A stretch of DNA of 64,000 nucleotides. Origin: Verrucomicrobiota bacterium. GTDB lineage: Bacteria; Verrucomicrobiota; Verrucomicrobiia; CAIQCK01. The position numbers and the translations under genes are program-made. Every line of letters starts with the position of its first letter. The stretch's first letter is position 1. The stretch is from positions 110,210-174,209 of the forward strand of contig JAPLTX010000060.1 of the NCBI GenBank assembly GCA_026397915.1, given 5' to 3'. Below the pieces are notes generated by a model. The model saw only the letters and a program-made list of their open reading frames with translations. It made no database searches and was not told the origin of the DNA. Of the stretch, positions 22,744 through 44,400 are shown piece by piece.

Positions 22744-22817
22744 CGGGACTCGTCGGCATCGGGATCCCTGTTCTTGCCGGTAAAGGGCGCATTGCCTGAA
22801 CGCCCTTGGGCGGCGTT

Positions 22818-22903
22818 GTAGAGTTGGCCGTCTCGGCCGATAAGATTGTTTGATGCGAAATCCTCTCAAAACGCCGCAACTTTGCCGCCGAGACGGCTGC
22901 TAC
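22818..22903. repeat. Degenerate inverted REP doublet
   Basis: GCCGTCTCGGC (22827-22837) is inverted at 22887-22897. Each arm is preceded by GTAG on its own strand. Confidence 0.5.
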
Positions 22904-22964
22904 TATAACGCTCCAGCCGCATCTTCCTTTCGGGCAACGCACCTTGTGAAGCGCGTTTCCCCAC

Positions 22965-28045: not shown

Positions 28046-28204
28046 GGCCGCAACGCTAACAACGCCCCGCAGCCCGCGCAAGTTTGATTCTCTGCTTCTC
28101 TGCTGCACAATCCGTCGTTTCCATACTTGCGCAGTCGTGGCGGGCCGCCTAGATTCCGCCGCTGTTATCAAACACTGAACAATAAAGAGGAGACCTTAAA
28201 AACC

Positions 28205-28786
28205 ATGGAACACAAACTGCCCGCGTTGCCGTTCGCCAAGGACGCTTTGGCGCCGATCATCTCTGCCGAGACAATTGACTATCACTACGGCAAACACCAC
28301 GCGACCTACGTCGCCAACCTGAACAAACTCATCCCCGGCACCGAGTTTGAAAACCTGACGCTGGACCAGATCGTCAAGAAAGCCACCCCCGGTGGCCTCT
28401 TCAACAACGCCGCGCAGGTCTGGAACCACACGTTCTACTGGAATTGCCTCTCGCCCAAGGGCGGCGGCGAGCCGACCGGTGCGCTGGCCGACGCGATCAA
28501 GAAGGCGTTCGGCACCTTTGCGCAGTTCCAGGAGAAGTTTGCCGCCACCGCCGTGGGGACGTTCGGCTCCGGCTGGGCATGGCTGGTGAAGAATCCCGAT
28601 GGCTCCCTCGCCATTGAGAGCACCAGCAACGCCGGCACGCCGCTCACCACCGCCAAGAAGCCGCTGCTCACGTGCGATGTGTGGGAGCATGCCTACTACA
28701 TTGACTACCGCAACGCCCGCGCCGGTTACGTCGAGAAGTTCTGGAAGCTCGCGAACTGGTCGTTCGTCGCCGACAACCTGAAGTAA
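28205..28786 (+). CDS. sodB: Fe superoxide dismutase
   Basis: [29 protein letters not shown] (Fe-type Gln), [28 protein letters not shown] upstream. Confidence 0.97.
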
Positions 28787-28812
28787 CAACGACGCGGCAA
28801 CCCGCTGTCACG

Positions 28813-28857
28813 CAACCGATGCAGTCAGCCTCGCGCTGGCTGCATCGGTTGTTTTTT
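28813..28857 (+). terminator. Rho-independent terminator after sodB
   Basis: CAACCGATGCAGTCAGC-CTCGC-GCTGGCTGCATCGGTTG followed by T6. Confidence 0.85.
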
Positions 28858-28888
28858 GACCGCGCGCCGAAGCGGCCGGCGCCGGCAA

Positions 28889-29593
28889 TCACTTGCGTGC
28901 CACTTTGCGGAAGCGGACGAAGTAGTTCTCGTTCATGAAGTCCCGCTCCTCGACCTTCTTGAAGCCCGCGGCCTCGATCTCCGCCGTGAACACCTCCTGT
29001 CCGGCGCGGACGTGCTTCACAATCCACTCCTTCGACTTGCCGGGGATGCGCTTGAACTCCACCAGCACCAGTTCGCCCTTCGGCCGCAACGCGCGGTGAA
29101 TGGACGCCATCGAGTCCTTCGCATGGTTGAAGTGGTGATAGACATCGCAGAGGAACACCACATCCGCGCAGCCTGCCGGCAACTCCACGGAGCGTTCCGT
29201 GCAGAGCGCCGTCTCGACGTTCGCGAAGCCGGCGTCCTTGGCGCGCTTGGCGATGTGCTCGATCAGCCGCTTCTCGATCTCCACGGCGATGACCTTGCCT
29301 TTCGGGCCGACGGCCTCGGCGAACATCATCGTGAACAACCCCGTGCCCGCGCCGATGTCGGCGACGACCGCGCCGGGTTTCACGGCGGCGGCTTTGAAGA
29401 TGTCCTGCCGCCGGTCGTAAGCTTCGCGGCCGGCTTTCTCGTAGCGTGCCGTCAACTGCTCGATGGTTGGCGGGGCGCTTTGCTTCGACGGCTGGCCCTT
29501 CGCGGTGGCGGACTGCTGGCTGAACGCGAGCGTCGCGGCGGCGAAGCAAAGCAGGAGGTTGAGCGTGGCGCGGAGAAGAGGCTTGAAGTTCAT
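28889..29593 (-). CDS. Class I SAM-dependent methyltransferase with N-terminal signal peptide
   Basis: VVADIGAGTG, VIAVEIE, DVVFLCDVYHH, LRPKGELVLVEF. The N-terminus MNFKPLLRATLNLLLCFAAATLAFS looks like a Sec signal. Confidence 0.9.
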   Translation of the reverse strand: MNFKPLLRATLNLLLCFAAATLAFSQQSATAKGQPSKQSAPPTIEQLTARYEKAGREAYDRRQDIFKAAAVKPGAVVADIGAGTGLFTMMFAEAVGPKGKVIAVEIEKRLIEHIAKRAKDAGFANVETALCTERSVELPAGCADVVFLCDVYHHFNHAKDSMASIHRALRPKGELVLVEFKRIPGKSKEWIVKHVRAGQEVFTAEIEAAGFKKVEERDFMNENYFVRFRKVARK

Positions 29594-29635
29594 GGCGCGG
29601 CATCGTAGCCGGACGGAAACGCCGGCGACAACTGC

Positions 29636-29672
29636 GATTTGCTCTTGCCTTGCCCGACGCGTGGGCGACTAT
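29636..29672 (+). promoter_or_regulatory. Promoter-like motif, copy 1
   Basis: GATTTGCTCTTGCCTTG-N11-GGCGACTAT (TTGCCT-N16-GACTAT), identical at 41352-41388. Confidence 0.6.
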
Positions 29673-29700
29673 CTCAGTCGTAATCATGCAACACGAATAC

Positions 29701-29847
29701 CCCCTCACCCTAGCCCTCTCCCTCGCAGCGGCGGAGAGGGAGAAGTTTCACGCGCCGCAGCGCGACTTGCTGAAAGGTGAACACTTTCAAGGCAGCGTGG
29801 ACGGTTTCCCTCTCCCCATCCGATGGGGAGAGGGTCAGGGTGAGGGG
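29701..29847. repeat. CCCCTCACCC...GGGTGAGGGG palindromic element, copy 1 (intergenic)
   Basis: Terminal arms CCCCTCACCCTAGCCCTCTCCC / GGGAGAGGGTCAGGGTGAGGGG, each with an internal CCCTCTCCC..GGGAGAGGG hairpin. Confidence 0.85.
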
Positions 29848-29901
29848 CCGCGGCGACTGAATAGTTGCGGCTTAGGGAATCCAAAGCATCCAATGCCTTG
29901 C

Positions 29902-32900
29902 ATGAAAATTTTTGCGTCCTTGCTGCTGTTCGCGTTTGCGAACTGTGCCGAAGCCGCGGACTGGCCGCAATGGCGCGGCAACGCCAACCGCACGGCGGAC
30001 ACGTCCGAGAAACTTCCCGCGCAGATGAGCCTGCGCTGGGTGCGCGAGTTTCCGGCGCGCGTGCCGGCGTGGGAGGATCCGCTGAACCAGGACTTGATGC
30101 CGTTCGACGCCGTCTTCGAGCCGGTGGTGATGGGCGACAGGATGTTCGTCGGGTTCAACGACGCCGACAAATTGGTCGCGCTGGACATTCACACGGGCCG
30201 GCAGCTCTGGGCGTTCTACGCCGACGGGCCGGTGCGGCTCGCGCCGGCTTGCTGGGAGGGCAGAGTCTATTTCGCCAGCGACGACGGCTGCCTCTATTGT
30301 GTGCGCGCTGACAACGGCGCGCTGGTGTGGAAATTCCGCGGCGGCCCCTCCAACCGCAAAGTGCTCGGCAACAGCCGCCTCATCTCCGCGTGGCCCGCGC
30401 GCGGCGGGCCGGTCATCCGCGACGGCGTGGTTTATTTCGCGGCGAGCATCTGGCCGTTCATGGGCACGTTCATCCACGCGCTCGATGCCGCGACCGGGCA
30501 GGTTGTCTGGGTCAACGACGGCACCGGTGCGCAGTTCGTCAAACAACCGCACAACGCGCCGGCGTTTGCCGGCGTCGCGCCGCAGGGCGCGCTCGTGGCG
30601 ACCGAGAAGTTCCTGCTCGTGCCGGGTGGCCGCTCCATTCCTGCGGCGTTCGACCGCGCGACTGGCGCGTTCCTCCACTTCCCCATCGCCGAGTCCGGCA
30701 AAGGCACGGGCGGCTCGACGGTGATGGCCAGCGAGAAGGAGTTCTTCGTCCACACCCGCGAGCGTGGCACGCGCGCCCACGATCTGGCGACGGGCAAGAA
30801 AACCATCTTCACCGTCAACGAGCCGGTGCTGGGCAAGACGCACGTCTATTGCGCCGCGAGCTGCTCGACGAACTTCGCCGCCCGCGCGGAAGCGGAGTTG
30901 AAACTGGAGACGGCGCGCCAGGCCCACCTCAAAGCGAAGAACGACCTCGCCGACGCGCAGGACGCGGCCGAGGCCAACGCCATCAAGCGCGCCGCCGCCG
31001 CGGTCAGTTCCGCCGAGAAGAAGGTCGAGCTTGCCGGAACGCTTGTGAGCCGCGCCCGACAGAACGCGCCGGATGGCGCCTCCGTCAAAGTCATCCAGGC
31101 GTGGAAGGCGGACAAATCGTTGCAGTGGGAAATCCCGGCCGACGGCTCCGGCGACCTCATCCGCGCCGCCGGCCGGCTCTACGCGGCCGGCTCAAACACC
31201 ATCGTCGCCATCGAAGTTCCGAAGCAGGGCGGCAAGCCCGCCATCGTCTGGTCGCAGCGCGTGCAGGGGACCGTGCGCCGGTTGCTCGCCGCCAACGGGA
31301 TGCTCTTCGCCGTGACGCTCGAAGGCCGCATCATGGCGTTCGGCGAAGGTGGAACGCGACCTCCGGGCGCGTTTCTGTCGAAAGCGAACGTGTCCAACAC
31401 GAACGCGTCCGGAGGCCGCGTTCCACCTGAACAAGCGCGCGAGATCATCGAGAAAACCGGCGCGCGCGAAGGCTGCGCGTTCGTGCTCGGCTTGGGCGAC
31501 GGCCAGTTGATCACGGCGCTGGCGACGGCCTCGAAGCTGCACCTCATCGGCGTGGATGCCGACGCCGCGAAAGTGGACCGCCTGCGACGGCAACTGGACG
31601 GCGCGGGCCTCTACGGCAAACGCGTGTCGCTGCTGGCGGCGCGGCCGGATGCGTTTGGCGCGCCGCCCTACATCGCCAGCCTCATCGTCGCTGATGACTC
31701 GCTGGCCCCGGCGGCGCTGCGCAAAGTTTATGAATCGCTGCGGCCCTACGGCGGTTCGCTCTGGATTGCCGGCGCGAAGAGCGTCGCCGTCGCCGGCCTG
31801 CCGAAGGCGAAAGTTGAAACCCTCGCCAACGCCGTGCGCATCGTGCGCGAAGGCGCGTTGCCGGGCGCGGCGGATTGGACCCACCAATACGGCGACATCG
31901 CCAACTCGGTGAAGTCCGACGATAGCGCGTTGAAGCTGCCAGTGGGCCTGCTGTGGTTTGGCGGCAACACGCACATGGACGTGCTGCCGCGCCACGGCCA
32001 CGGCCCGTCCGAGCAGGTCATTGGCGGCCGCTTGTTCATCGAAGGCATGGACTGCTTCAGCGCGCGCGACGTTTACACCGGCCGCGTGCTGTGGAAAACA
32101 ACCATTCCCGGCCTGAACACCGCCGGCATCTACCACGATAACACGCTGCTCGCGAATTCTCTGACCACGCTTTACAGCCAGCGCCATATCCCCGGCGCCA
32201 ACGCGCGCGGCGCGAACTTCGTCGCCACGGACGACAGGGTTTACATCGCCGTCGGCAACCACTGCGCCGTCCTCGACGCGGCGAGCGGCGCGATCCTCCG
32301 CGACATCCCGATGCCCGGCGGCGACTGGGGCTACATCGGCGTCTGCGGCGACGTGCTGCTCGGCGGTGCCGACTTCGCGCGCTTCAACAAACGCTTCCCG
32401 ACGCCCGGCCTCGACTTCCTCGCCGCCATCAGCGACTTCGCCGCCAGCCGCGGGCTGGTCGCGTTCGACCGCCACACCGGCGCGGTGCTCTGGCGGGCCG
32501 GCGCGCGGCACAGCTTCGTCCACAACGGCATCGTCGCCGGCGGCGGTCGCGTCTATTGCCTCGACCGCCTGCCGAAGAGCGCGGAACTCAAAGCCGCCGC
32601 GCGCGGCGAGAAAGTCGCGGCGAGCTACCGCATCGTCGCCCTCGACCTGCGCACGGGCAGGCCGCTGTGGGAAAACACCAACGGCGTCTTCGGCACGTGG
32701 CTGGCTTACTCGAAGGAGCGCGACCTCCTGCTCCAGGCCGGCGCGAGCGCCACCGACCGCTGGAAGGACGAGGCGAAGGAAGGCATGGCCGTCCTCCGCG
32801 CCAAAGATGGCACCGAGGTCTGGAAAAATCCGGGCCTCAAATACACCGGCCCGTGCATCCTCCACCACGACCTCATCATCACCACGCCGACCTCCTACAA

Positions 32901-33927
32901 ACAATCCGCCGGCGCCTTCAGCCTGCTCGACGGCAAGCCGCACCTCATCGCCAACCCGCTCACCGGCGAAGCCCAGCCCTGGCGCGTCTATCGCGCCTAC
33001 GGCTGCAACACGCCCGTCGCCTCCGAAAACGTGATGACCTTCCGCTCCGGCACCGCCGGCTTCTACGACCTGCAAACCCACGCCGGCACCGGCAACCTCG
33101 GCGGCTTCAAGAGCGGTTGCAGCGCCAACCTCATCGTCGCCAACGGCGTCCTCAACGCCCCCGACTACACCCGCACGTGCAGTTGCCCCTACCAGAACCA
33201 GACCTCCCTCGCCCTCGTCTCGATGCCGGAGGTGGAGATGTGGACCTGCAACCTCTCCGGTTTCGACGCGCCCGAGGGCAGGCGCATCGCGCGCATCGGC
33301 ATCAACCTCGGCGCGGCCGGCGACCGCATCGCGGACGACGGCACGCTCTGGCTCGAATACCCCTCCGCCGGCGGTATCTCCCCGCAACTGCCCGTCACCA
33401 TCACCGGCGACACCCGTAACATCTTCCGCCGGCACGCCAGCGCCGTCACCGGCAGCGGCCCCGCGTGGGTCGTCGCCTCCGGCCTGCGCGACATCGAGTC
33501 CATCGTCATCACCCCGCAGACACAGAAAGCCCCGCCGCCCTCCGCCCAGAAGGACGACGAGGAAGACGACAAAGCCGCCGCCAAGGGCAAGACCGCTGCC
33601 GCCCCCGCGCGGCCCGCCGAACCGGCCGCTGCGCCCGCCGCCGCCATTCCCCCGCTGCCGCCCGCCCGCTACACCGTGCGGCTCTACTTCATGGAACCGG
33701 ACGACATCGCGCCGGGCCAGCGCGTCTTCGACGTGCTCCTCCAAGGCCAGCCGGTCCTGAAGAACTTCGACATCGTCAGAGCCGCCGGCGCCGTCAACCG
33801 CGGCGTCGTGAAGGAATTCAAGAACGTCCAACTCGCCCCCCGGCTCGAAGTCCGCCTGCAAAAGTCAGCCGCCTCCACCCTCGGCCCCGCCCTCAGCGGC
33901 GTCGAGTTGGTGCTTGAGAAAAACTGA
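29902..33927 (+). CDS. Giant exported protein: PQQ-like beta-propeller + SAM-methyltransferase-like domain + second propeller with Cys motif + malectin-like domain
   Basis: Signal peptide then ADWPQWRG; repeated propeller blades (G..LW); VLGLGDG..GVDAD..LRPYGG; YGC..SGC..CSC; YTVRLYFMEP..RVFDVLLQG..FDI. Confidence 0.88.
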   Translation: MKIFASLLLFAFANCAEAADWPQWRGNANRTADTSEKLPAQMSLRWVREFPARVPAWEDPLNQDLMPFDAVFEPVVMGDRMFVGFNDADKLVALDIHTGRQLWAFYADGPVRLAPACWEGRVYFASDDGCLYCVRADNGALVWKFRGGPSNRKVLGNSRLISAWPARGGPVIRDGVVYFAASIWPFMGTFIHALDAATGQVVWVNDGTGAQFVKQPHNAPAFAGVAPQGALVATEKFLLVPGGRSIPAAFDRATGAFLHFPIAESGKGTGGSTVMASEKEFFVHTRERGTRAHDLATGKKTIFTVNEPVLGKTHVYCAASCSTNFAARAEAELKLETARQAHLKAKNDLADAQDAAEANAIKRAAAAVSSAEKKVELAGTLVSRARQNAPDGASVKVIQAWKADKSLQWEIPADGSGDLIRAAGRLYAAGSNTIVAIEVPKQGGKPAIVWSQRVQGTVRRLLAANGMLFAVTLEGRIMAFGEGGTRPPGAFLSKANVSNTNASGGRVPPEQAREIIEKTGAREGCAFVLGLGDGQLITALATASKLHLIGVDADAAKVDRLRRQLDGAGLYGKRVSLLAARPDAFGAPPYIASLIVADDSLAPAALRKVYESLRPYGGSLWIAGAKSVAVAGLPKAKVETLANAVRIVREGALPGAADWTHQYGDIANSVKSDDSALKLPVGLLWFGGNTHMDVLPRHGHGPSEQVIGGRLFIEGMDCFSARDVYTGRVLWKTTIPGLNTAGIYHDNTLLANSLTTLYSQRHIPGANARGANFVATDDRVYIAVGNHCAVLDAASGAILRDIPMPGGDWGYIGVCGDVLLGGADFARFNKRFPTPGLDFLAAISDFAASRGLVAFDRHTGAVLWRAGARHSFVHNGIVAGGGRVYCLDRLPKSAELKAAARGEKVAASYRIVALDLRTGRPLWENTNGVFGTWLAYSKERDLLLQAGASATDRWKDEAKEGMAVLRAKDGTEVWKNPGLKYTGPCILHHDLIITTPTSYKQSAGAFSLLDGKPHLIANPLTGEAQPWRVYRAYGCNTPVASENVMTFRSGTAGFYDLQTHAGTGNLGGFKSGCSANLIVANGVLNAPDYTRTCSCPYQNQTSLALVSMPEVEMWTCNLSGFDAPEGRRIARIGINLGAAGDRIADDGTLWLEYPSAGGISPQLPVTITGDTRNIFRRHASAVTGSGPAWVVASGLRDIESIVITPQTQKAPPPSAQKDDEEDDKAAAKGKTAAAPARPAEPAAAPAAAIPPLPPARYTVRLYFMEPDDIAPGQRVFDVLLQGQPVLKNFDIVRAAGAVNRGVVKEFKNVQLAPRLEVRLQKSAASTLGPALSGVELVLEKN
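31347..31428. repeat. REP doublet (REPIN-like) in frame inside the CDS
   Basis: 27-bp arms AGGTGGAACGCGACCTCCGGGCGCGTT / AACGCGTCCGGAGGCCGCGTTCCACCT (25/27), each with a GTGG foot and an AACGCG..CGCGTT hairpin. Confidence 0.85.
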
Positions 33928-33944
33928 ACGCGCCGCGCGCGCCT

Positions 33945-34577
33945 TCACGTCGCCCGGCAGCGCACCGGCGATCCCCACGGCCCCGTGCCCGCACGGGCCA
34001 GCGTCGCCACGCGAAACCAATACTCCTTGCCCGGCTCCAGTCCCGTCACCGTGCATTTGCGGCGCGTGAACGCTCCCACATACTTCCATCCCGCCTTCCC
34101 GTCCGGGTCCGTGCTCATCTCCACCAGATACGACGGCCTGCGCCGCCGCACGAGCGTCCACCTCAACAGAACACTGCCGGCGAGCAGACCCGGCAACGCC
34201 TTCAAACCATCCGGCGCGGGCAACAGCCCGATCCGCTTCTTCTCCGCCACCAGCTCCAGCCCCGCACTGACCAGCGCCGCGGCCACGCCCCCAGTCTGCG
34301 ACTCCACTCCCGCCCTCAACAGCCACGCCGCATGCCGCAACTCTCGCATCGCGTCGTTGCGCTTCAGCACCTGCGCCTTCAACGTCTTGCGCGCCGTCTC
34401 CACGGCGTCAATCAACGTGCGCGCCTCCTCCACCGCCCGTTGCAGCCGGGGCAGATGCTCCAGCTTCCCTGCCAGCGCCGCATCGCTGCTTGCGCCGCGC
34501 GCCAGCCGCTCCGCCACCCTCAACTGCTCACCCACCGGCTTGTCCTTGAAGGCCAACTTCGTTCTTGCGAGTTTCAT
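33945..34577 (-). CDS. Cytoplasmic fibronectin type III domain protein (helical N-terminus + FN3)
   Basis: PAPDGLKA..GSVLLRW..SYLVE..W..TVTGLEPGKEYWFRV..G.GPWG. Start set at MKLARTK. Confidence 0.8.
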   Translation of the reverse strand: MKLARTKLAFKDKPVGEQLRVAERLARGASSDAALAGKLEHLPRLQRAVEEARTLIDAVETARKTLKAQVLKRNDAMRELRHAAWLLRAGVESQTGGVAAALVSAGLELVAEKKRIGLLPAPDGLKALPGLLAGSVLLRWTLVRRRRPSYLVEMSTDPDGKAGWKYVGAFTRRKCTVTGLEPGKEYWFRVATLARAGTGPWGSPVRCRAT

Positions 34578-34717
34578 TCTCGTGCTCCGTTCATTTGCAA
34601 GCCGCCGGGCACCATCCGCCGACGGCAAACATCCTTCTGCAAAGACCATTTTCCATCCGGTGGATTGGTGAAAGCAAGGACGGAAAGTTCGTTTCCTTAC
34701 CAGCAGTAGGCCATTTC

Positions 34718-34975
34718 CAGACTGGAAAAGGCCTCCGGCAGACTGAAGAAGGCTCATGCGCGACTGGAATGAGCGGCCGTCAGACTGGAATCCGGCCCGA
34801 TCCGATTGATTTCGCCTCCTGCCGGGCTGGAGACAGCGGTTTCCAGCCTGCGGAATGCCTCCGCTCTCCTGCCGAATGCCTTCATATAGTAAGGAAACTA
34901 ACTTTCCTTACTAGCAACATGCTATTTCCAAACTAGAAACCAGCTATTTTCTTCAGGAAACCAGCAAAAACAGCC
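34718..34975. repeat. Degenerate 21-bp-period repeat tract containing an 11-bp perfect inverted repeat
   Basis: GACTG(G/A)A heads at 34718/34739/34760/34781; CTGC(G/C)GAATGCCT at 34848/34869; TAGTAAGGAAA-N5-TTTCCTTACTA at 34887-34913. Confidence 0.6.
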
Positions 34976-35057
34976 GGAAAGTGGGCAAAGCCAGGATGTT
35001 TTCCGCGCCTCACAACATGGAGATCAACCAAGCCGACTTGGAAGCCAGCCAACTCCA

Positions 35058-35106
35058 TCCGACGTCCGACTCCTTACGCCCTACGTCTCACGCATCGCGC
35101 TTCCCG
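35058..35106. repeat. Degenerate tandem heptamers
   Basis: TCCGACG TCCGACT CCTTACG CCCTACG TCTCACG CATCGCG CTTCCCG. Confidence 0.45.
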
Positions 35107-35173
35107 CCGCGCTGTCTCCGACTGCCGAAGCCGTCCCGCCCGTCCTCCGCCCCATTCCGCGTGCCGCACAACC

Positions 35174-35224
35174 TGACTCATAGTCCATAGACCTTTCGAC
35201 CGTTTTAGCATGGACTATCAGTCA
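35174..35224. promoter_or_regulatory. 15-bp inverted repeat containing two GACT-N3-AGTC (C-box-like) palindromes
   Basis: TGACTCATAGTCCAT...ATGGACTATCAGTCA; GACTCATAGTC at 35175 and GACTATCAGTC at 35213. Confidence 0.55.
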
Positions 35225-35306
35225 TGCCGAAACGTGACCCACCCTCGCCGCTCTTGGTCGGAATGTCCGTCATCACCGCGAAGCGCGCGGCTTGCGCTGT
35301 GAAGGT

Positions 35307-36107
35307 TCAGTCGCTGAAAACTTCCGAGCGATGATACGCAAGGAACTGCGGGTCTGGTTTCGCAAGCTTGCTGGGCAGTTGAATCGGTTTACCCTCGAAC
35401 GATACGAAATTCTTCTCCAGTGCTGGCTGCGGCAAGTAAGCTTTGAGCCTTTTGCTGAGGACAACCTTCAGCTTCTCGTCCAGCGTGATAAGCCCGGCGT
35501 CGAATGCGGCGTCGTGGATGGACGAGAGGCAAAGACCGTTTCGTGGGTTCAATCTCTGATCCGGAAAGTCACGCCACGGTTTGATATGGCTTGCAACGAG
35601 CAGGCGCGGCACGTTGATTCCGCTGATGCAGCAACGCACACCGTAAGCATTGAGAATCGCCTGACGGAAGAATTGTTGTCCGCGTCGCACCCGCACAGTC
35701 GCGTTGGATTCCGTCGGTCCTGTCGGCGGCGTTGGCTCAAGTCGGATTCTGTCGCGGTGAAGGAAATCCAGTTCCTTTGCTTCGTCTTTCGTAAAAAGGT
35801 CATGCAGCATTTCCTCGCTCTCCGGGCCAAGCGTCGCGAGTTCGGAGTGGAACTCTTCCCACAACGCGCGATCTAGTTTCGATACGTTCGGAAATCCACC
35901 TACGCCGCGCTCATGATGCACAGGATCAAAAGAAGCGAAATTGCAGAGCTTCATAACCAGAGCGTCTGGCGTGCGGCCGATCCTCTTCGCCACGTCAACG
36001 ATGATGGGATTCTTTTTGTCGAATTGTCCGAACGGCAGCTTGCAGTAGAGGTTCAGCGCGATTAGAAGTTGCTCGCGCGTCCAGTTGACTCTCGGGGCGT
36101 TAGCCAT
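35307..36107 (-). CDS. HNH endonuclease (predicted restriction endonuclease, N-terminal helical domain + HNH)
   Basis: WTREQL.IALNLYCKLPFG..RTPDALVMKL.NF; RRGQQFFRQAILNAYG.RCCISG..LVASHIKPW..NGLCL..HDAAFDAG. Confidence 0.92.
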   Translation of the reverse strand: MANAPRVNWTREQLLIALNLYCKLPFGQFDKKNPIIVDVAKRIGRTPDALVMKLCNFASFDPVHHERGVGGFPNVSKLDRALWEEFHSELATLGPESEEMLHDLFTKDEAKELDFLHRDRIRLEPTPPTGPTESNATVRVRRGQQFFRQAILNAYGVRCCISGINVPRLLVASHIKPWRDFPDQRLNPRNGLCLSSIHDAAFDAGLITLDEKLKVVLSKRLKAYLPQPALEKNFVSFEGKPIQLPSKLAKPDPQFLAYHRSEVFSD

Positions 36108-36196
36108 GAACGAAGCGTGCCACATTCAGACGCGTCTGCGAAGCTCGAAAGAGCTTGCCTTGCTCGCCATTCCTGGCCAGGTAGTTCTGTCGAGTT

Positions 36197-36430
36197 ATGG
36201 ATAAGACTTACACAATCAAACTCGACAGTGCCGATCTCGGCCAACTGCTTGACGGCTTGATAGCGCGCGCGGAGGCGTGGGAGAAAACAGCACACTACCA
36301 CCGAACGGGAGAAGATCCGAAAGACATTCTTGTGGAAGAGTGTGTTGACGCCGAGGAAGCCGAAACCATCGCCGACCATTACCGATCCATCATCGCCAAG
36401 ATTCAACAACAGCGGAAGGAGCAATCATGA
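36197..36430 (+). CDS. Hypothetical 77-aa acidic helical protein
   Basis: Clean ORF with protein-like composition; ATGA-coupled to the next ORF. Confidence 0.75.
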   Translation: MDKTYTIKLDSADLGQLLDGLIARAEAWEKTAHYHRTGEDPKDILVEECVDAEEAETIADHYRSIIAKIQQQRKEQS

Positions 36431-36729
36431 ACGGGGAAACCTCCCTCAACCTTCGGAACGGGTTCTGCATTTTCGAGAACGTGCTTTCGCAAGGCCCTAC
36501 ACCGATAGTCAGCGACGGCGAAAACAAGTATGTGGTTTTTGAGACCGAGCTGGAGGCGCAAAAAGAAATCGCTGATTACGCCATGACCCGCTTGCGGCAG
36601 TTTATTGATGGCGAGCGAGACTTCGACGACGCCATTGTCGTGGATGAATACGTGGTGCCCGTAACCGTGCATCCCGACGGCACGATCACAGATGAAGACG
36701 GCAGGTGTTTTGGACCATACGCAGAATGA
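36427..36729 (+). CDS. Hypothetical 100-aa acidic protein
   Basis: GGAG RBS, ATGA overlaps at both ends, protein-like composition. Confidence 0.75.
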   Translation: MNGETSLNLRNGFCIFENVLSQGPTPIVSDGENKYVVFETELEAQKEIADYAMTRLRQFIDGERDFDDAIVVDEYVVPVTVHPDGTITDEDGRCFGPYAE

Positions 36730-36974
36730 TGAAGCTGGCGGTGTTTGTGGACGGCTGTTTCTGGCATAGCTGTCCGAAGCACGGGACGAAGCCGGCGAAC
36801 AACGCGGCGTTCTGGCGGAAGAAACTGTCTGCGAACAAGGCGCGGGACCGGCGGGTGACGCGGACGCTGCGGCGGCTGGGCTGGCGGGTGGTGCGGATTT
36901 GGGAGCACGAGCTGGCGCGCAAGAATGAGACGCGCTGCGTGGAGAAGATACGGAGGAAACTTAGCCACGGATGA
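36726..36974 (+). pseudogene. vsr: Very short patch repair endonuclease, C-terminal half only
   Basis: KLAVFVDGCFWH.CP.H...FW..K...N..RD..V...L..LGWRV.RIWEHEL. The N-terminal MSRI..TKPE..PD segment is absent. Confidence 0.85.
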
Positions 36975-37028
36975 ACACAGATTCACACGGATGCGGCGAG
37001 GCTCACGCAAAGACGCGGAGACGCCAGG
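36963..37028. repeat. Half copy of a CCACGGATGAACACAGAT-type repeat
   Basis: AGCCACGGATGAACACAGATTCACACGGAT has 9-nt periodicity like the arms at 98-193. Confidence 0.5.
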
Positions 37029-37051
37029 CATCGAAAGCGGACGGTCGAGGA

Positions 37052-37261
37052 TCAGAAGCCGAAGTCAACCGGGGTCAGGCCGGACTGGCGGATGATGGAG
37101 CGGGTGGTGCCGGCGGGGATTTCCTTCTTCGGATGCGGCACGATGGCGATACGGCCGGTGGGGTTCTTGTATTTACAGTGGCTGCCTTTTTGCGAAACGA
37201 AGCCAAATCCGTGTTGCTGCAGCACACGGATGATTTCGGTCGAACTGAGCCGCCTAGGCAT
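37052..37261 (-). CDS. hicA: HicA-family toxin
   Basis: MPRRLSSTEIIRVLQQHGF..VSQKGSH.KY....VPHPKKEIPAGT.RSIIRQSGL. Confidence 0.92.
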   Translation of the reverse strand: MPRRLSSTEIIRVLQQHGFGFVSQKGSHCKYKNPTGRIAIVPHPKKEIPAGTTRSIIRQSGLTPVDFGF

Positions 37262-37463
37262 TGACCAGTTCCCGGCCGACGGTGGCCTCGCTGACCGGCG
37301 CAAAGGCGTCGGGAGTCTCGCCCTCGCAGTAAAGCTCGACCGCTTCCTTGAGGTTGCTCACAGCTTCCTCTTTGGTGTGGCCGAAGCTGGAGACATCCAC
37401 GTTGAGACATTGCGCCACGAAGAACTCGTCTTCCCGATACACACAGTAAGCAATCTCTTTCAC
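37254..37463 (-). CDS. hicB: HicB-family antitoxin (short, no C-terminal DNA-binding domain)
   Basis: VYREDEFFVAQC..VDVSSFGHTKEEAVSNLKEAVELY; overlaps the hicA start. Confidence 0.9.
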   Translation of the reverse strand: MKEIAYCVYREDEFFVAQCLNVDVSSFGHTKEEAVSNLKEAVELYCEGETPDAFAPVSEATVGRELVNA

Positions 37464-37556
37464 GAGGCGACCCTAACATGGCGTGTTCGCAAAGACAACC
37501 ACGCCGCTGAGTCGTTGTTGCAGGCGGGGCGGGGCGACGGCTAGAGTGCGGCTGCC

Positions 37557-40500
37557 ATGAGTTTTCATCTTCGAGCCTTTCTCGCCATCGCACTTTCCCT
37601 GCTCACACCGGCTTTGTTGGCGGCGGCCGACTGGCCGATGTGGCGCTGCGACGCGGGGCGGACGGCGGCCTCCAGCGAGACGCTGCCGCAGGAGCTGCAC
37701 TTGCAGTGGGTGCGGGAATATCCGGCGCTGAAGCCGGCGTTCTGGCAGGTGCGGCAGGAGCGGGTGCAGTTCGACCTCGGCTACGAGCCGGTGGTGATGG
37801 GGCGGACGATGTTCGTCGCGTCGTCGCGCAACGACAGTGTCACGGCGCTGGACGCGGAGACGGGCGCGGAGAAGTGGCGGTTCTACGCCGACGGCCCGGT
37901 GCGGTTCGCGCCGGTGGCCTGGGAGCGGAAGCTTTATTTTGTCTGCGACGACGGCTGTCTCTATTGCCTCGACGCGGCGGGCGGGAAGCTGCTCTGGAAG
38001 GTCCACGCCGTGCCCTCGAACCGCAAGGTGCTCGGCAACGGGCGGCTCATCTCGGTCTGGCCCGCGCGCGGCGGGCCGGTGCTCGACGGCGGGCGCGTGT
38101 TTTTCGCGGCGGGCGTCTGGCCGTTCGAGGGCATCTTTGTGCACGCGGTGGACGCGCGGACCGGCCGGTCGCTGTGGGTCAACGACAGCATGGGGTCGTT
38201 GTATCTGGTGCATCCACACAAGGCGATGTCGTTTGGCGGGCCGTCGCCGCAGGGCTATCTGCTGATGAACCGCGGGCGGCTGGTGGTGCCGAGCAGCCGT
38301 GCGTTTCCCGCGTTTCTCGATCCGGCGACGGGCAAGCTGCTGTCGTTCGACTTCGGCCACGGCCGCACGGACAGCGAGACGGGCGGATGGTTCCTGTCGA
38401 GTGACGCCGAAGGCCGGCTCTGCGTGGACCCGGCGATTGATTCGGAGATGCATGACGGCGGAATGCAGACCGTCGGGCAGATCGGGCTGCGCAGGAATCC
38501 CGGCGACAAGGTGAAAGAGACTGTCACGATCGGCAAGGAAACCTATCGCGTGATGGATGGCGTGGCGGGAGTGATCCGCGCCGGCTCGCGGGAGTTTCGG
38601 TTCCGCGACGGCTTCCCCGGTGTCGAGGGAACCATTCACACGATGCTCGCGGCGGACGGCCGGTTGTTCGTCGTGACGCGCGAGGGCCGCATTCATTGCT
38701 TCGGCGGCAAACAGGTCCAGCCCGTGCGTCACGCGGCGAAGGCGCGGCCGGCTGAGCCACGCCGGAACGATGCAGGCGCCGCCGCCCCTCACCCCGGCCC
38801 TCTCCCCGCTGACGCGGAGAGAGGGAGAATGCCTTCGTTGGGAGAACCGTCGAACCATTCGACGGGTTCGGCAACGACGGCGACAAGCTCCCCTCTCCCC
38901 CATCGGGGGAGAGGGCAGGGTGAGGGGGTGTCGGGCGGCAGGCAGGGCCAGGGTGAGGGGAGCCGACCGGAGACTGCCAAAGTATTGTTCAAGCTGAGCG
39001 GGCAGAGCGAAGGCTACGCGTTGGTGTTGGGCCTCGGCAACGGCAATCTCGCCGAAGCGCTGGCGACGCAACCGAAGCTGCGCGTCATCGCCGTGGATCG
39101 CGACGCGAAGAAGGTCGCGGTGTTCCGCCAGCGACTGGACGCGGCGGGACTTTATGGCGAGAAGATCACCGCGCACATCGGCGAGCCAGCGGCGTTCGGG
39201 TTGCCGCCTTACATGGCGAACCTGATCGTTGTCGAGGAACCCGCTGCGGCGGGAGAGAACTTCCTCGAAGCAGCCTTCGCGGCGCTGCGGCCTTACGGCG
39301 GCACGTTGTGCGTGAAGGTCGCGGAGCTGCCACGCGAGAAGGTCGTGAAGCTGGCGGGCGCGCAGTTGCGGCAGGAAGGCGGCTGGACGCTCGTGGTGCG
39401 GGCGGGGCCGTTGCCCGGCGCGGCGAACTACACCGGCCGCCCGAACTACGACGATCTCGTGCGCGCGCCGCTGGGCCTGCTGTGGTTCGGCGACACGTTC
39501 CATCATCACAAGCTCTTCTATAACGGCGTGACGGCGGAGTCGGGCCGCGGCCTACCCGCCTACGTCAAGGTCGAGGACGGCGTGGTGAGCTACATGGTCA
39601 CGGAGCCTTATGGCATGAAGCCGCCGAAGCTGAGCTATACGGACATGCTGAGGAAGTTCAACGAGCAGACGCACGCGGCGGCATTCAGCGATGTCTATAC
39701 GGGGCGGCTGCTGGAGCGCGGCCCGAAAGCTTCGCCCGCGGCCGCTTCCGCCGAGTCGCTGCCGCTCGCGCGCCGCAACCCGATCACCGGCCGCGAGGAG
39801 GCGCGAGAGTATATGAAGACCTACGGCTGCGACCTCGTCGGCGCGGACTACGGGAACTTCATCACGCTGCGCTCCGGCACGGGGGCGTTTTACGACAAGC
39901 GCAGCGAGAGTGGCACCGTCAACATCAGCGGCCTGCGCTCCGGCTGCCGCAACAACATGGTGCCGGCCTGCGGCGTCCTGAGCGTGCCGTCGTGGACCGG
40001 CAACTGCACCTGCAACTATCCGGTCTTCACCTCGCTCGCGCTGGTCTCGATGCCGGAGAGCTTCGAGCAATGGAGCGCGTGGGGCGGCGTGGCCGAGGAC
40101 GGGCCAATCCGGCGCGTCGGCATCAACTTCGGCGCGCCCGGCGACCGCATGACGCGCGACGGCACGCTCTGGCTCGATTGGCCCAGCGTGGGCGGCCCGT
40201 CGCCGGACGTGCGCGTGCAGGTCGCGCCCGCCGACGCGCAGCCGTTCTACCGGCACGCGCTCTGGATGAAGGGCGGCGAAGGCTGGCCGTGGGTGTTCGC
40301 GTCTGGCATCAAGGGCGCGCGCACCGTGCGCATCGAAACGATTGCCCGCGCGACCAACGCGCCCTCCGCGAACTTCAGCGCGCGCTGGACCGGCCAGATC
40401 GAGCCGCAGTTCAGCGAGGAATACACGTTCCACGCGCGCAGCGACGGACCGATGCACGTCTGGATAGACAACCGGCCATTGCTCGACAGCACGCTGAGGC

Positions 40501-41120
40501 CATTGCGCGACGGCCAGCGCGAGGCGTCGGCGAAGATCACGCTCGAGGCCGGCACGAAGCATGACCTGTTCGTGGATTACAAACACGCACCCGCCACCAA
40601 CTCCGCACCGTCTGCGTTTGCTGAGTTGAGTTGGAGCAGTCCGTCGGTGCCGAAGACCGTCATTCCGCCGGAGCGACTCCTGGCGCCCGACGGTCGTCGC
40701 GGCGGTCTGGCGGGCGTCTATTACAAAGCCGAGCGATCGTCCGGCGCTTACAGCAACGAGCGGACGAGCACCCCCGCGCTGTTCCAGCGCGACACGCAGG
40801 TCCGTTTCGAATGGGGCAGCGAACTGCCGGTGATTCTCAAGCCCCGCCCGCCGGTTCAACCGGCTGAGCGTGCCTACACGGTGCGGCTGATGTTCGCCGA
40901 GCCGGAGGAAATTCGCGCAGGCCAGCGCGTCTTCGACGTGAAGCTCCAGGGCCGCGAAGTTCTCCCGTCGCTCGACATCGTCAAGCAAGCCGGCGGCAGC
41001 AATCGCGGCATCGTCCGCGAGTTCCGCGGCGTGAAGGCCACCGACGCGTTGGAGATCGAGCTTGTCCCGCGCAGCGCCAAACCGCCGCTCATCTGCGGCG
41101 TCGAATTGATCGCCGAGTAG
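37557..41120 (+). CDS. Giant exported protein: PQQ-like propeller + SAM-methyltransferase-like domain + Cys motif + malectin-like domain with nested PA14
   Basis: Paralogue of 29902-33927 (ADWPMWR, GNGRLISVWPARGGP, VLGLGNG..AVDRD..LRPYGG, YGC..SGC..CTC, YTVRLMFAEP..RVFDV). PA14-like FSARWTGQIEP..YTF..SDG..VWID. Confidence 0.88.
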   Translation: MSFHLRAFLAIALSLLTPALLAAADWPMWRCDAGRTAASSETLPQELHLQWVREYPALKPAFWQVRQERVQFDLGYEPVVMGRTMFVASSRNDSVTALDAETGAEKWRFYADGPVRFAPVAWERKLYFVCDDGCLYCLDAAGGKLLWKVHAVPSNRKVLGNGRLISVWPARGGPVLDGGRVFFAAGVWPFEGIFVHAVDARTGRSLWVNDSMGSLYLVHPHKAMSFGGPSPQGYLLMNRGRLVVPSSRAFPAFLDPATGKLLSFDFGHGRTDSETGGWFLSSDAEGRLCVDPAIDSEMHDGGMQTVGQIGLRRNPGDKVKETVTIGKETYRVMDGVAGVIRAGSREFRFRDGFPGVEGTIHTMLAADGRLFVVTREGRIHCFGGKQVQPVRHAAKARPAEPRRNDAGAAAPHPGPLPADAERGRMPSLGEPSNHSTGSATTATSSPLPHRGRGQGEGVSGGRQGQGEGSRPETAKVLFKLSGQSEGYALVLGLGNGNLAEALATQPKLRVIAVDRDAKKVAVFRQRLDAAGLYGEKITAHIGEPAAFGLPPYMANLIVVEEPAAAGENFLEAAFAALRPYGGTLCVKVAELPREKVVKLAGAQLRQEGGWTLVVRAGPLPGAANYTGRPNYDDLVRAPLGLLWFGDTFHHHKLFYNGVTAESGRGLPAYVKVEDGVVSYMVTEPYGMKPPKLSYTDMLRKFNEQTHAAAFSDVYTGRLLERGPKASPAAASAESLPLARRNPITGREEAREYMKTYGCDLVGADYGNFITLRSGTGAFYDKRSESGTVNISGLRSGCRNNMVPACGVLSVPSWTGNCTCNYPVFTSLALVSMPESFEQWSAWGGVAEDGPIRRVGINFGAPGDRMTRDGTLWLDWPSVGGPSPDVRVQVAPADAQPFYRHALWMKGGEGWPWVFASGIKGARTVRIETIARATNAPSANFSARWTGQIEPQFSEEYTFHARSDGPMHVWIDNRPLLDSTLRPLRDGQREASAKITLEAGTKHDLFVDYKHAPATNSAPSAFAELSWSSPSVPKTVIPPERLLAPDGRRGGLAGVYYKAERSSGAYSNERTSTPALFQRDTQVRFEWGSELPVILKPRPPVQPAERAYTVRLMFAEPEEIRAGQRVFDVKLQGREVLPSLDIVKQAGGSNRGIVREFRGVKATDALEIELVPRSAKPPLICGVELIAE
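38785..38960. repeat. CCCCTCACCC...GGGTGAGGGG element, copy 2, in frame inside the CDS
   Basis: CCCCTCACCCCGGCCCTCTCCC (38785) ... GGGAGAGGGCAGGGTGAGGGG (to 38927), plus an extra right-arm fragment to 38960. The ORF stays open. Confidence 0.85.
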
Positions 41121-41169
41121 CCGTGTCGCTTTCTCGTCTGGCCAACGAAACAGTTATCTTCGGAGGGCT

Positions 41170-41310
41170 CCCCTCACCCTGGCCCTCTCCCCTCGCAAGC
41201 GAGGGGAGAGGGACGCCTGTCGCCGTCATGCACAGCAGATGGTTCGCCCGCTCGTGCGCAAGGAGTTTTTCCTCTCCCCGCGATAGTGGGGAGAGGGTCG
41301 GGGTGAGGGG
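41170..41310. repeat. CCCCTCACCC...GGGTGAGGGG element, copy 3 (intergenic)
   Basis: CCCCTCACCCTGGCCCTCTCCC ... GGGAGAGGGTCGGGGTGAGGGG, followed by CCGCGGC as in copy 1. Confidence 0.85.
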
Positions 41311-41351
41311 CCGCGGCAATTGAATCGTTTCGGGTTGGCAGGAATACCGTT

Positions 41352-41388
41352 GATTTGCTCTTGCCTTGGCCGGCCCGATGGCGACTAT
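41352..41388 (+). promoter_or_regulatory. Promoter-like motif, copy 2
   Basis: GATTTGCTCTTGCCTTG-N11-GGCGACTAT, 17 nt upstream of the GH106-like ATG. Confidence 0.6.
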
Positions 41389-41405
41389 GTCGGCGAGGCC
41401 TCAAT

Positions 41406-44400
41406 ATGAAAACTTCTGCATCTCTTCTCCTGCGCGCAACCGCCCTCTTCCTGCTCGCGTCCACGCTCCAAGCCGGAGCCGTGGACTCCACCGATGCGCG
41501 CAAACTCTTTGCCAAGCCGACGCGCGACTGCGCCAACGCGCCGCTCTGGGTCTGGAACGACATGATGACCGAGCGGGAGGTCGTCGAGACGATGCGCGAC
41601 CTCGCCGGCCAGCAGGTCAAGCAAGTCTTCGTCCATCCGCGGCCGGGCCTGATGACGCCGTATCTGTCGCCGGAATGGTTCCGGCTCTGGAAGGTCGCGC
41701 TGCGCGAGGCCGAGCGGCTCGACATGAACTGCTGGATTTACGACGAGAACTCCTATCCGTCGGGCTTTGCCGGCGGCTGGGTGCCGGAGTTGATGCCGGA
41801 ATCGCGCGGTCGCGGCCTGCACCTGCGCGAACACAAGCAACCGCCGCGGTGGAGCGACGATTACTTCGCGGTGTTCCAGTTGGCCAGCGACAAGGCCGTG
41901 AACGTGACCGCGAAGGCGCGCGCGGGCACGCTGCCGAAAGGGCGCTACCTCACCGCGGAGATCAAACGCGCGGAACCGCGGCCGTGGCACGGCGGGCGGA
42001 CTTACGTGGACCTGCTCTATCCCGGCGTCACCGAGAAGTTCCTCAACGTCACGCTCGAAGCGTATCGGCGCGAGATCGGCAGCCAGTTCGGCAAGCGCGT
42101 GCCCGGCTCGTTCACCGACGAACCGGAGATCCGGCCCGCCGGCGGGTTGCCGTGGACGGAGGATCTGCCGCAGCAGTTCCAGAAACGCTGGGGCTACGGG
42201 CTGATGGAAAACCTCGCCAGCCTCAGCCAGCCGGTCGGCGATTGGAAGAAGGTGCGGCACGATTTCTTCGCGACACTGCTCAGCCTCTTCATCGAGCGAT
42301 GGGCCAAGCCGTATTACGAGTATTGCGCGAAGAACGAGTTGGAGTTCACCGGCCACTACTGGGAGCACGACTGGCCGCGTTGCATCGGCGTGACCGACAA
42401 CATGGCAATGGCGGCGTGGCAGCAGCGGCCGGGCATAGACATCCTCATGAACCAGTATCGCGAGGACACGCACGCGCAGTTTGGCAACGTCCGCGCCTGC
42501 CGTGAGCTGTCCAGCATCGCCAACCAGCTCGGTCGCAAGCGCACGCTCGTGGAACTCTACGGCGCCGGCGGCTGGGATCTGCGGTTCGAGGACATGAAAC
42601 GCATCGGCGATTGGCTGGAGGTGCTTGGCGTCAACACGCTCGACGAGCATCTCTCCTACGCCACGCTCCGCGGCGCGCGCAAACGCGACCATCCGCAGTC
42701 GTTCTCGTATCACGAGCCGTGGTGGTCGGCGTATCACGTCTCGGCCGGCTACTTCGCGCGGCTGACAGCGGCGCTCACGCAGGGCGAGCAGATCAACCGC
42801 GTGCTGATCATCGAGCCGACAACCACCGCGTGGATGAACCAGAACGATGAAGCGCGGTTGAAGGACCTCGGCGACGCGTTCTTCAACCTGCTGATGCCGC
42901 TCGAAGCCGCGCAGGTGGAATACGACATCGGCTGCGAAGACGTGCTCGCCAACCACGGCTCCGTCAGCGGCGCGACGTTGCGCGTCGGCAAGCGGGACTA
43001 CACGACGGTCGTGCTGCCGCCGCTTGCCGAGAACCTCGACAGCAAGACCGTGGCGCTGCTCGACAACTACATGAAAGCCGGCGGCACAATCCTCTGCGCC
43101 GGTGAGCCGCCCGCCCGCGTGGACGGCGTGGTGTCGCCACGTGGCGCGGAGCTTGCGCGAAACGCGAAGTGGAAGAAGATCGAGCCAGCCGCACTACCGG
43201 AACTGCTGCGGAAGGCGACGGCCACTGACGGATTCGCCATCGGTCGCGCTGACGGCGACAAAGGCATCCTGTTCCACCACCGCCGCCAGTTCGACGACGG
43301 CGAGTTGCTCTTCCTCGTCAACACGAGCATCGAGTCGCCGTCGGCCGGCGTGATTGAGTCGCGCGCTCGCGGCGTCGAGCAATGGGACCTGCGCACCGGC
43401 AAGAGCGCGGCATATCACTTCGAGCCTCGTGACAATGGCGTTCGCGCGATATTCGCGCTGCCACCGTCGGGCAGCTTGCTGCTGTTCCTCTCAAAGAAAG
43501 CCTGCGCGCCCGCGCCGGTCGTTGAGGAGAAGGTCAAGCACATCGCCGCCGCCGGCCCGCCGCAAATCCGGCGCGTCGAGCCGAACGTGTTGACGCTCGA
43601 TGTCGTGGACATCACCGCCGGCGGCGAGACGCGAGCGGACGTCTATTTCTATCAGGCACAGCAGTTCGCGTTTCAGAAGAACGGCATGGACCGCAACCCG
43701 TGGGACAGCGCCGTGCAGTTCAAGGACGAGATCATCACGAAGAAGTTCCCGAAGGAGAGCGGCTTCGAGGCGAGCTACCGCTTCATCGTTGACGGCGCGG
43801 TGCCGAAGAACCTTGCCATCGTCATCGAGCGGCCCGACCTCTACGCCGTCACCTGCAACGGCCAGCCAGTGCGCGCGGCGAAAGGCGCGTGGTGGCTCGA
43901 CAAGGCGTTCGGGCGCATCTCCATCGCCCCGGCGGCGCGCGTCGGCGAGAACGTCGTCACCATCAAAGCATCGCCAATGACGATCTTCCACGAACTGGAG
44001 CCGGCCTACGTGCTCGGCGACTTCTCGCTCAAGCCGACAGCGAGAGGTTTCAACATTGCGCCGCCGCAGCCGCTGAGGCTCGGCCGCTGGAATGAACAAG
44101 GCGCGCCGTTCTTCAGCGCGGGTGTGGCGTATCGGCAGACGTTCAACGTGGCGTCGCCCGCCGGCCGCTACGCCGTGACGTTGCCGTCGTGGTATGGCAG
44201 CGTCGCGAAGGTGCTCGTCAACGGCAAGCTCGCCGGCCATATCGCCAGCCCGCCGTGGCGCTGCGACGTGAGCGGCAAGCTTAAGCGCGGCGCGAACTCC
44301 GTCGAGGTCATCGTCATCGGCACGCTCAAAAACACGCTCGGCCCGCATCACGGCAAACAGCCGCTCGGCAGCGCGTGGCCGCGGATGTTCCAGATCGGGC

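Follow-up and report, generated by a model that had tools for sequence, protein, structure and literature searches.

How can a multi-copy palindromic repeat lie in the reading frame of a conserved gene and leave that gene intact? This question is raised by a 64,000-nt stretch of DNA from a Verrucomicrobiota bacterium (assembly GCA_026397915.1, contig JAPLTX010000060.1, positions 110,210 to 174,209; hereafter the window, always meaning the whole stretch), in which one of two related genes, here called paralogue 2, carries an inverted-repeat element within its coding sequence. In this study, the sequence of the element pointed to a widespread bacterial repeat, the G/C-rich triplex motif known as BoxC, PIT or TM_ECO, and the linker that it occupies was found to have received inserts from several repeat families. 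The linker is very probably a tolerant hotspot for selfish palindromic repeats, and the element a non-autonomous one resembling a MITE (miniature inverted-repeat transposable element). The gene and the element copies are located as follows; L and P numbers denote compared loci and proteins, and L001 is a syntenic genome.

37557 to 41120, plus strand: paralogue 2, 1187 aa, an open reading frame (ORF) with Pfam matches; carries the in-frame element.
About 38760 to 38969, plus strand: coding copy, whole insert of 70 codons, net gain 69 codons (207 nt); encodes RRNDAGAAAPHPGPLPADAERGRMPSLGEPSNHSTGSATTATSSPLPHRGRGQGEGVSGGRQGQGEGSRP.
38785 to 38825, plus strand: left triplex-motif unit of the coding copy, CCCCTCACCC-CGG-CCCTCTCCCC-loop-GGAGAGAGGG; 100% identical to L001.
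38890 to 38927, plus strand: right triplex-motif unit of the coding copy, CCCCTCTCCCCC-loop-GGGGGAGAGGG-CA-GGGTGAGGGG.
38928 to 38960, plus strand: extra right-arm segment, ending in a second GGGTGAGGGG; missing from L001, P0249 and P0250.
29701 to 29873, minus strand: intergenic copy A (core 29701-29847, then conserved flank), opposite in orientation to the coding copy.
41170 to 41336, minus strand: intergenic copy B (core 41170-41310), opposite in orientation to the coding copy.
29701+, 29838-, 38785+, 38918-, 38951-, 41170+ and 41301-: matches to the decamer CCCCTCACCC or its complement, with strand.

The seven decamer matches, against 0.11 expected from shuffles, resolve into three copies of a CCCCTCACCC…GGGTGAGGGG element, two intergenic and one coding. 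The core of copy A ends 55 nt upstream of the true start of paralogue 1 (29902), and copy B begins 50 nt past the stop codon of paralogue 2. The initial annotation of this DNA, which had described an in-frame element in paralogue 2 with intergenic copies at 29701 and 41170, is thereby confirmed, and it had read both the encoded peptide and an extra duplicated right arm correctly. The second GGGTGAGGGG of the coding copy is genuine, lies 33 nt beyond the first and is missing from the closest relative. Tandem Repeats Finder did not report the right-arm duplication and gave only a weak 12-nt period in the left arm; the duplication is called because the decamer positions and the alignment with L001 show it. 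The span 38785-38960 proposed in that annotation holds for the decamer-bounded part of the element, inside the ORF 37557-41120. Compared with orthologues that have an empty site, the insert is larger, because a conserved flank of ~24 nt (CCGNAAC.ATTCA.T.GCCGCGG) precedes the left arm. Since this flank and parts of the spacer are common to the copies, these are related as whole elements of ~190-210 nt. Their arms of 27-53 nt are 74-77% complementary and carry the triplex-motif units in inverted orientation, that is, as the terminal inverted repeats that characterize MITEs. Four of the six frames of the element are open.

The identity of the element is suggested by the internal layout of its arms, each of which reads CCCCTCACCC-YRR-CCCTCTCCCC-loop-GGGGAGAGGG or the complement. 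The triplex motif is recognized by blocks of 9-10 nt: a pyrimidine block, a short loop, a complementary purine block, a linker of ~3 nt and a G/T-rich third block. In a direct comparison with the 23 E. coli sequences (PMC4666352, Table 1), this three-block layout was present in all three window copies and in the L001 copy, and the blocks CCCTCTCCC(C), loop, (G)GGGAGAGGG, 3-nt linker and GGGTGAGGG(G) follow in identical order in the window element. By this layout, the element is assigned to inverted pairs of the BoxC/PIT/TM_ECO G/C-rich intrastrand-triplex motif. The motif was first named BoxC, then PIT element and later TM_ECO (Holder et al. 2015, PMC4666352, which cites Bachellier et al. and Hoyne et al. 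for previous studies). It is known from more than 260 genomes, sometimes as inverted pairs; its E. coli copies are always intergenic, have no promoter or terminator activity and are tied to local genomic instability (PMC4666352). A further mark of the class is intrastrand triplex formation by single-stranded DNA in vitro; for the window element, folding was computed at the level of hairpins. A scan of species-representative genomes found the motif in at least 120 loci; the matches listed include Pseudomonas and Enterobacteriaceae (Proteobacteria), Rhizobiales, Verrucomicrobia, Planctomycetes, Acidobacteria, Chloroflexi, Cyanobacteria and others. An Rfam search of 28000-42500 returned no family, and Rfam holds no model for the triplex motif.

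Pfam matches in paralogue 2 comprise a PQQ-like beta-propeller, a Rossmann/methyltransferase-like domain, PA14 and malectin, with a Cys-rich middle region. A hydrophobic N-terminal helix looks like a signal peptide, and the product is likely a secreted propeller/PA14/malectin protein. The family comprises 4210 homologues from Verrucomicrobia and Planctomycetes that share the PQQ-propeller, Rossmann-like, PA14 and malectin domains. The linker between the motifs TREGRIxCFG and GYALVLGLG measures 52-59 aa in 58 of 60 homologues and 121 aa in the window. In a DNA alignment, an 81%-identical orthologue (L002) has an empty site at the position of the insert, and L001, 92% identical, has a 180-nt insert at exactly the site of the window's 207 nt. 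Both lengths, and their difference of 27 nt (9 codons), are multiples of three. Mis-assembly is excluded because three proteins from other assemblies (P0001, P0249 and P0250, in one 90% cluster with the window protein) share the insert, in its L001-type form. No stop interrupts the 1187 codons of paralogue 2, and all orthologues are single ORFs. The 27-nt in-frame difference in the right arm looks like slippage at a structured repeat, consistent with the described instability of the motif. The coding copy is bracketed by a direct repeat of 5 nt, GAGCC, with a spacing of exactly 207 nt. For the intergenic copies, comparison with the empty sites of L001, whose intergenic DNA has diverged, revealed no clean target-site duplication. 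Because L001 lacks both intergenic copies, the coding copy, which both genomes have, is the older, and copies have been gained or lost in the family after the window and L001 split; L003 also lacks the copy at 41170.

Between the window and L001, the ratio of nonsynonymous to synonymous substitution rates (dN/dS) is 0.25 over 401 codons upstream of the insert and 0.18 over 716 codons downstream, values that indicate purifying selection on both flanks. The insert itself has a dN/dS of 0.58, and of the five codon changes in its spacer four are nonsynonymous, which suggests that it evolves more freely than its surroundings. The low ratios on both flanks, together with insert lengths that keep the frame, indicate that paralogue 2 remained functional after the insertion. 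An AlphaFold model of paralogue 2, built from 76 family members, reached a predicted template modelling score of 0.81. In it, residues 403-466 have predicted local distance difference test values of 23-42 and no secondary structure; they lie between the last propeller strand (390-392) and a helix (470-481) that leads to the first Rossmann strand, ALVLGLG. Given this predicted disorder between domains, the insert lengthens a disordered inter-domain tether; it is predicted to be a disordered loop at a surface or non-core position compatible with the fold. As RNA, the insert folds with -137 kcal/mol (z = -5.0).

The second gene, paralogue 1, carries a different palindrome in the homologous propeller-to-Rossmann linker.

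29902 to 33927, plus strand: paralogue 1 (P0121), 1341 aa, 45% identical to paralogue 2 in a pairwise comparison; propeller, Rossmann-like and malectin domains.
31347 to 31428, plus strand: REPIN-like hairpin of paralogue 1, GGTGGAACGCGRCCTCCGGRCGCG family, in frame; encodes GGTRPPGAFLSKANVSNTNASGGRVPP.

The hairpin consists of 32-nt arms, 88% complementary, around an 18-nt spacer, and its RNA fold has -67 kcal/mol (z = -6.7). Its arm, GGTGGAACGCGRCCTCCGGRCGCG, has at least 137 metagenome matches, mostly hairpins with variable loops at unrelated loci, and occurs as singlets and doublets; this recurrence marks it as a genuine repeat family. The sole Rfam match in the searched span was a microRNA model that hit the hairpin far below the model threshold, and this match was dismissed as chance. 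The hairpin is shared by paralogue 1 of L001, with a loop 15 nt shorter and still in frame, and by P0123, P0124 and P0125; it is absent from P0122 and from more distant orthologues. The initial annotation had held that two unrelated repeat families occupy the equivalent linker of the two genes, and this is supported, both families being genuine. It had also called the two sites homologous: the linker is indeed the same, but the position within it differs, the hairpin beginning 1-2 residues and the paralogue 2 insert 17 residues after the xFG motif.

With a TTG at 29650 as its first codon, the longest ORF of paralogue 1 runs through intergenic copy A (…PLTLALSLAAAEREK…WGEGQGEG…). Since the repeat is stop-free in that frame, the stretch 29650-29901 is a spurious N-terminal extension, and the gene caller's start (P0121) is 29902. 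Upstream of paralogue 1 and of a GH106 gene lies a 40-nt motif, GATTTGCTCTTGCCTTG.CC…GGCGACTAT, found at 29636-29675 and 41352-41391 with 85% identity between the sites and conserved in L001 and L003; it is probably a promoter or regulatory site common to both genes. Intergenic copy A separates this motif from the start codon of paralogue 1.

Across homologues, the linker has received at least six independent palindromic inserts from five families, confirmed at the DNA level:

Insert 1: triplex-motif dimer, in the window and L001.
Insert 2: unrelated element of 156 nt, in the syntenic orthologue L003, with CCGGGTGYGATTG as its 13-nt terminal inverted repeats.
Insert 3: GGTGGAAC hairpin, in paralogue 1, L001 and L248, and in P0124 at the peptide level.
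Insert 4: triplex-motif-like dimer, in L245/P0217 (linker of 75 aa).
Insert 5: CAGACATTC…GAATGTCTG hairpin, in L246/P0129.
Insert 6: GGTGGGGCGAGCG… hairpin, in L247/P0165.

Their start points vary from 1 to 17 residues past the xFG motif. Repeat inserts are also found in a second region, close to where the Rossmann-like domain ends:

L244/P0196: triplex-motif dimer.
P0214: matching peptide insert, at the protein level only.
L003 1181-1276: 28-bp-stem hairpin GTGGGGCGAGCTTCCAAGCTCGCCC…, in frame.

The GTGGGGCGAGCTTCCAAGCTCGCCC… hairpin family recurs in intergenic DNA ~100-200 nt after the stop of the L003 gene (L003 3061). In an alignment of 121 sequences of the paralogue 2 family, internal rare inserts of at least 15 aa occur only at the linker and at one loop of the Rossmann-like domain. 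A sliding-window folding scan placed the strongest structure at the linker in 5 of 12 genes, with a 120-nt window that is blind to the long-range pairing of triplex-motif dimers. In the window, both strong palindromes within coding sequence fall in this linker of the two paralogues. Two more strong palindromes, with 31-32-nt arms, lie at 98-193 and 22813-22911; ACGAAATGCACGAAA-type repeats occur in one, and both seem to represent further repeat families. The recurrence counts are verified events and not a census.

The following course of events would account for these observations. The element, composed of two hairpin-plus-third-strand units around a ~60-nt spacer and a short conserved flank, entered paralogue 2 as one copy within the unstructured linker between the propeller and the Rossmann-like domain. 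The inserted copy probably survived because its length is a multiple of three, its frame is stop-free and its peptide, rich in Pro, Gly and Ser, would do no more than extend a disordered tether. The insert was then inherited by at least two diverged lineages, and its right arm later altered by an in-frame, slippage-type expansion; other palindromic families settled in the same linker of paralogue 1 and other orthologues. The linker likely recurs as a site because few other positions in this large protein escape the removal of such inserts by selection. The data show the motif's identity, the insertion and its inheritance, the intact frame, the purifying selection on the flanks, the predicted disorder and the recurrence. 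We infer that the insert has no use, being neutral or selfish, and that the recurrence results from tolerance rather than targeting. A tolerant hotspot was one of the readings proposed in the initial annotation, and it is well supported by the varied insert positions, the predicted disorder and the purifying selection on the flanks. Several observations weigh against this explanation. The paralogue 1 hairpin has not lengthened its linker (56-64 aa with the hairpin and 54-57 aa without), a finding that simple insertion leaves unexplained. Over its first 78 nt (38760-38837, flank and left unit), the paralogue 2 insert is 100% identical between the window and L001, next to a spacer with ~10% substitutions and against a gene average of 5-8% (92-95% nucleotide identity); this hints at gene conversion, or at a constraint on the DNA or RNA. 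The insertion sites of the triplex-motif dimer and of the unrelated L003 element are within 5 nt of each other, beside a short palindrome, CCGGCTGAGCCGG, which might point to targeting. The linker survey was partly steered by unusual linker lengths, so that the enrichment should not be read as an unbiased estimate; two unbiased scans, one for signatures over whole proteins and one for folding in sliding windows, are small.

The proximity of these two inserts would also be expected if the sequence or structure of the linker DNA, such as the palindrome CCGGCTGAGCCGG or an older hairpin, were recognized by a repeat-mobilizing machinery, making the linker a true integration hotspot. REP-type hairpins (REP, repetitive extragenic palindrome) are known targets of some insertion elements, the GAGCC repeat brackets the 207-nt insert exactly, and both strong coding palindromes of the 64-kb window share one linker. 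Such targeting is nevertheless unlikely, as the other linker events begin 1, 3, 5, 6 and 10 residues past xFG, inserts occur at a second loop as well, the intergenic copies have no clean target-site duplication against the L001 empty sites, and the linker sequence is not conserved among lineages with inserts. The description of the linker as a landing pad for repeats was overstated, in that no observation demonstrates active targeting. It is quite unlikely that the insert was retained for a use, whether because greater length and flexibility of the tether or because strong structure in the mRNA or DNA between the domains aids folding, domain reach or expression. The retention of the insert in lineages with a synonymous divergence (dS) of ~0.13-0.22, the perfectly conserved left arm and flank, the very stable mRNA structure, and a paralogue 1 linker near the family norm despite its hairpin, which suggests some length constraint, would fit this possibility. 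However, ~97% of the examined orthologues have no insert, the inserted peptides of different families are unrelated in sequence, dN/dS is raised within the insert with mostly amino acid-altering changes in the spacer, the right arm is unstable and the region is predicted to be disordered. No positive evidence was found for selection on linker length, mRNA structure or translational pausing, which the initial annotation had offered as an alternative to tolerance. That the arrangement reflects a mis-assembly, a pseudogene or two genes with the element effectively between them is scarcely credible: palindromic repeats are prone to mis-assembly, but four assemblies share the insert at the same site, the reading frame is open throughout with all length differences in multiples of three, and purifying selection acts on both sides of the insert in orthologues that are all single ORFs.

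Copies of the motif are found in frame in other proteins as well. A peptide search with the insert gave 7 matches among 1.8 billion representatives; the low number is probably due to composition filtering, and the search is uninformative on frame preference because only the same frame can be detected. The same element subfamily lies in frame in P0241, between an HZS-alpha-like domain and HEAT repeats, and within a PcRGLX-like protein, P0243; both are unrelated proteins of verrucomicrobial type. The motif occurs 137 times in the cross-phylum genome loci; at least 8 of these copies are in frame in genes and have Pfam domains on either side:

L005: mfd.
L008 and L067: ABC proteins (one ABC exporter, with the motif between the membrane and ATPase domains, and one ABC ATPase).
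L018: class I tRNA synthetase.
L048: ligA, NAD-dependent DNA ligase.
L098: priA.
L105: glf, UDP-galactopyranose mutase.
L114: vgrG.

These host genes are conserved, partly essential, and come from several phyla, and the motif mostly lies between domains. In the planctomycete LigA, alignment places the 29-residue motif-encoded insert between residues 159 and 162 of E. coli LigA. Of the 15 long ORFs that span the motif in other genomes, seven lacked Pfam support; these are probably spurious and were not counted.

In other genomes, genes for DUF559 (Vsr-like) endonucleases often have the BoxC/triplex motif directly beside them. In L098, an inverted motif pair exactly encloses a DUF559 gene (2406-2860), and the entire unit is in an open frame inside priA. 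The motif also abuts DUF559 genes in L052 (238-681), L250 (842-1400) and L251 (1-600). Of 120 DUF559 homologues, at least 7 have motif-encoded residues at their end, and in a few the first residues seem derived from the motif. In E. coli (K-12 NC_000913.3 1351204-1351760; L249 1700-2261), the DUF559 gene ycjD terminates in a motif-like hairpin, and TM_ECO copy no. 9 is found 168 nt downstream of ycjD, past a duplicated remnant of its 3' end, within the same variable segment. A clean empty site for ycjD plus motif was not found in E. coli, where strains without ycjD carry a different island at this position, and the literature searched contains no paper linking DUF559 to the triplex motif. Tentatively, inverted triplex-motif pairs could be the non-autonomous form of a cross-phylum mobile element whose autonomous form has a DUF559 (Vsr-like PD-(D/E)XK) gene between its arms, with both forms able to sit in frame, including in the housekeeping genes mfd, ligA, priA, class I tRNA synthetase and vgrG. 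If so, the relation between DUF559 genes and motif pairs would parallel that of insertion sequences to MITEs. The adjacency offers a testable enzyme candidate for this repeat, for whose spread an explanation has been lacking since the 1990s.

In the window itself, no autonomous element encoding a mobilizing enzyme was found. The initial annotation had suggested looking for a DUF559/Vsr-like nuclease gene flanked by the element; such flanking is frequent elsewhere, but the Vsr-like fragment of the window adjoins no element copy.

36705 to 36974, plus strand: truncated Vsr/DUF559-like ORF between the paralogues, not adjacent to any element copy.

The version of this gene in L001 is full length (134 aa). 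The DNA between the paralogues is a variable islet (window 33945-37556 against L001 7145-10012), which contains HicA/HicB (37052-37463) and the truncated Vsr-like ORF in the window, and MazE/PIN, a NOV_C protein and the full-length Vsr-like gene in L001.

The locus can be compared with several known repeat systems. Its closest relatives in sequence, the BoxC/TM_ECO motifs, share with the window element the multi-copy state, frequent inverted ("palindromic") pairs, occurrence in many phyla and local instability, seen here in the expansion of the right arm. The E. coli K-12 copies are intergenic in 23 of 23 cases with no coding copy described, whereas the window has one coding copy in frame (38760-38969); the intergenic location is a described property of the E. 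coli copies and not a defining feature of the sequence. The window loops are also longer (3-8 nt vs 3-4 nt in E. coli), and the verrucomicrobial pair has a conserved spacer and flank and behaves as a composite element of ~190-210 nt. Coding copies of the BoxC/triplex motif appear to be new within the literature searched. A motif that is among the most widely distributed bacterial repeats, and for which neither function nor mobilizer is known, can thus be coding sequence. The hairpin of paralogue 1 resembles REPINs in being a doublet of arms, each internally palindromic, and in belonging to a family of singlets and doublets. Bertels and Rainey, in 2011, reportedly described REPINs as extragenic inverted doublets associated with RAYT transposases. 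No RAYT gene was found here, and no search aimed at one was made. If the DUF559 relation is true, the motif pairs would stand to DUF559 genes as REPINs do to RAYT genes.

In-frame repeats are known from two other systems. Monomers and dimers of GTAG/CGTC REPs lie inside ORFs of known proteins, to which they contribute 20-30 aa or more (Di Nocera et al. 2013, PMC3733652). The verrucomicrobium Opitutus terrae has the largest number of these intragenic REPs; certain ORFs have received two, and the authors favour tolerance over function (PMC3733652). Unlike the families described here, in which no such end tags were seen by eye, GTAG/CGTC REPs are tagged and linked to RAYT transposases. The Rickettsia palindromic elements (RPEs), as far as they are described in the accounts consulted (Ogata et al. 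2000, via PMC10969869 and PMC3733652), are repeats of ~100-150 nt found in functional genes, where they keep the frame and contribute a peptide segment that the fold accommodates; intergenic copies exist too. The window element shares the features of this class, being a palindromic multi-copy repeat in frame in a gene that is otherwise intact and conserved. It looks unrelated to the RPEs, and its host is a free-living, GC-rich organism of another phylum; because the motif is BoxC-type, homology to the RPE families is not expected. Several families share one linker here, an arrangement not found described for RPEs in the parts of that literature that were searched.

In sum, the locus joins an already known kind, that of the in-frame palindromic repeats represented by the Rickettsia RPEs and the Opitutus REPs, and illustrates how selfish DNA can lengthen proteins without breaking them. 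Repeats of this kind cause long spurious ORF extensions (such as the 29650 start) and odd low-complexity segments, which annotation pipelines should recognize. The repeated colonization of one linker by several families appears to be new within the literature searched, and a linker colonized independently by at least five repeat families constitutes a natural experiment on insertion tolerance and linker growth. Should the tentative link with DUF559 hold, the triplex-motif pairs would be a pan-bacterial counterpart of the Rickettsia RPEs.

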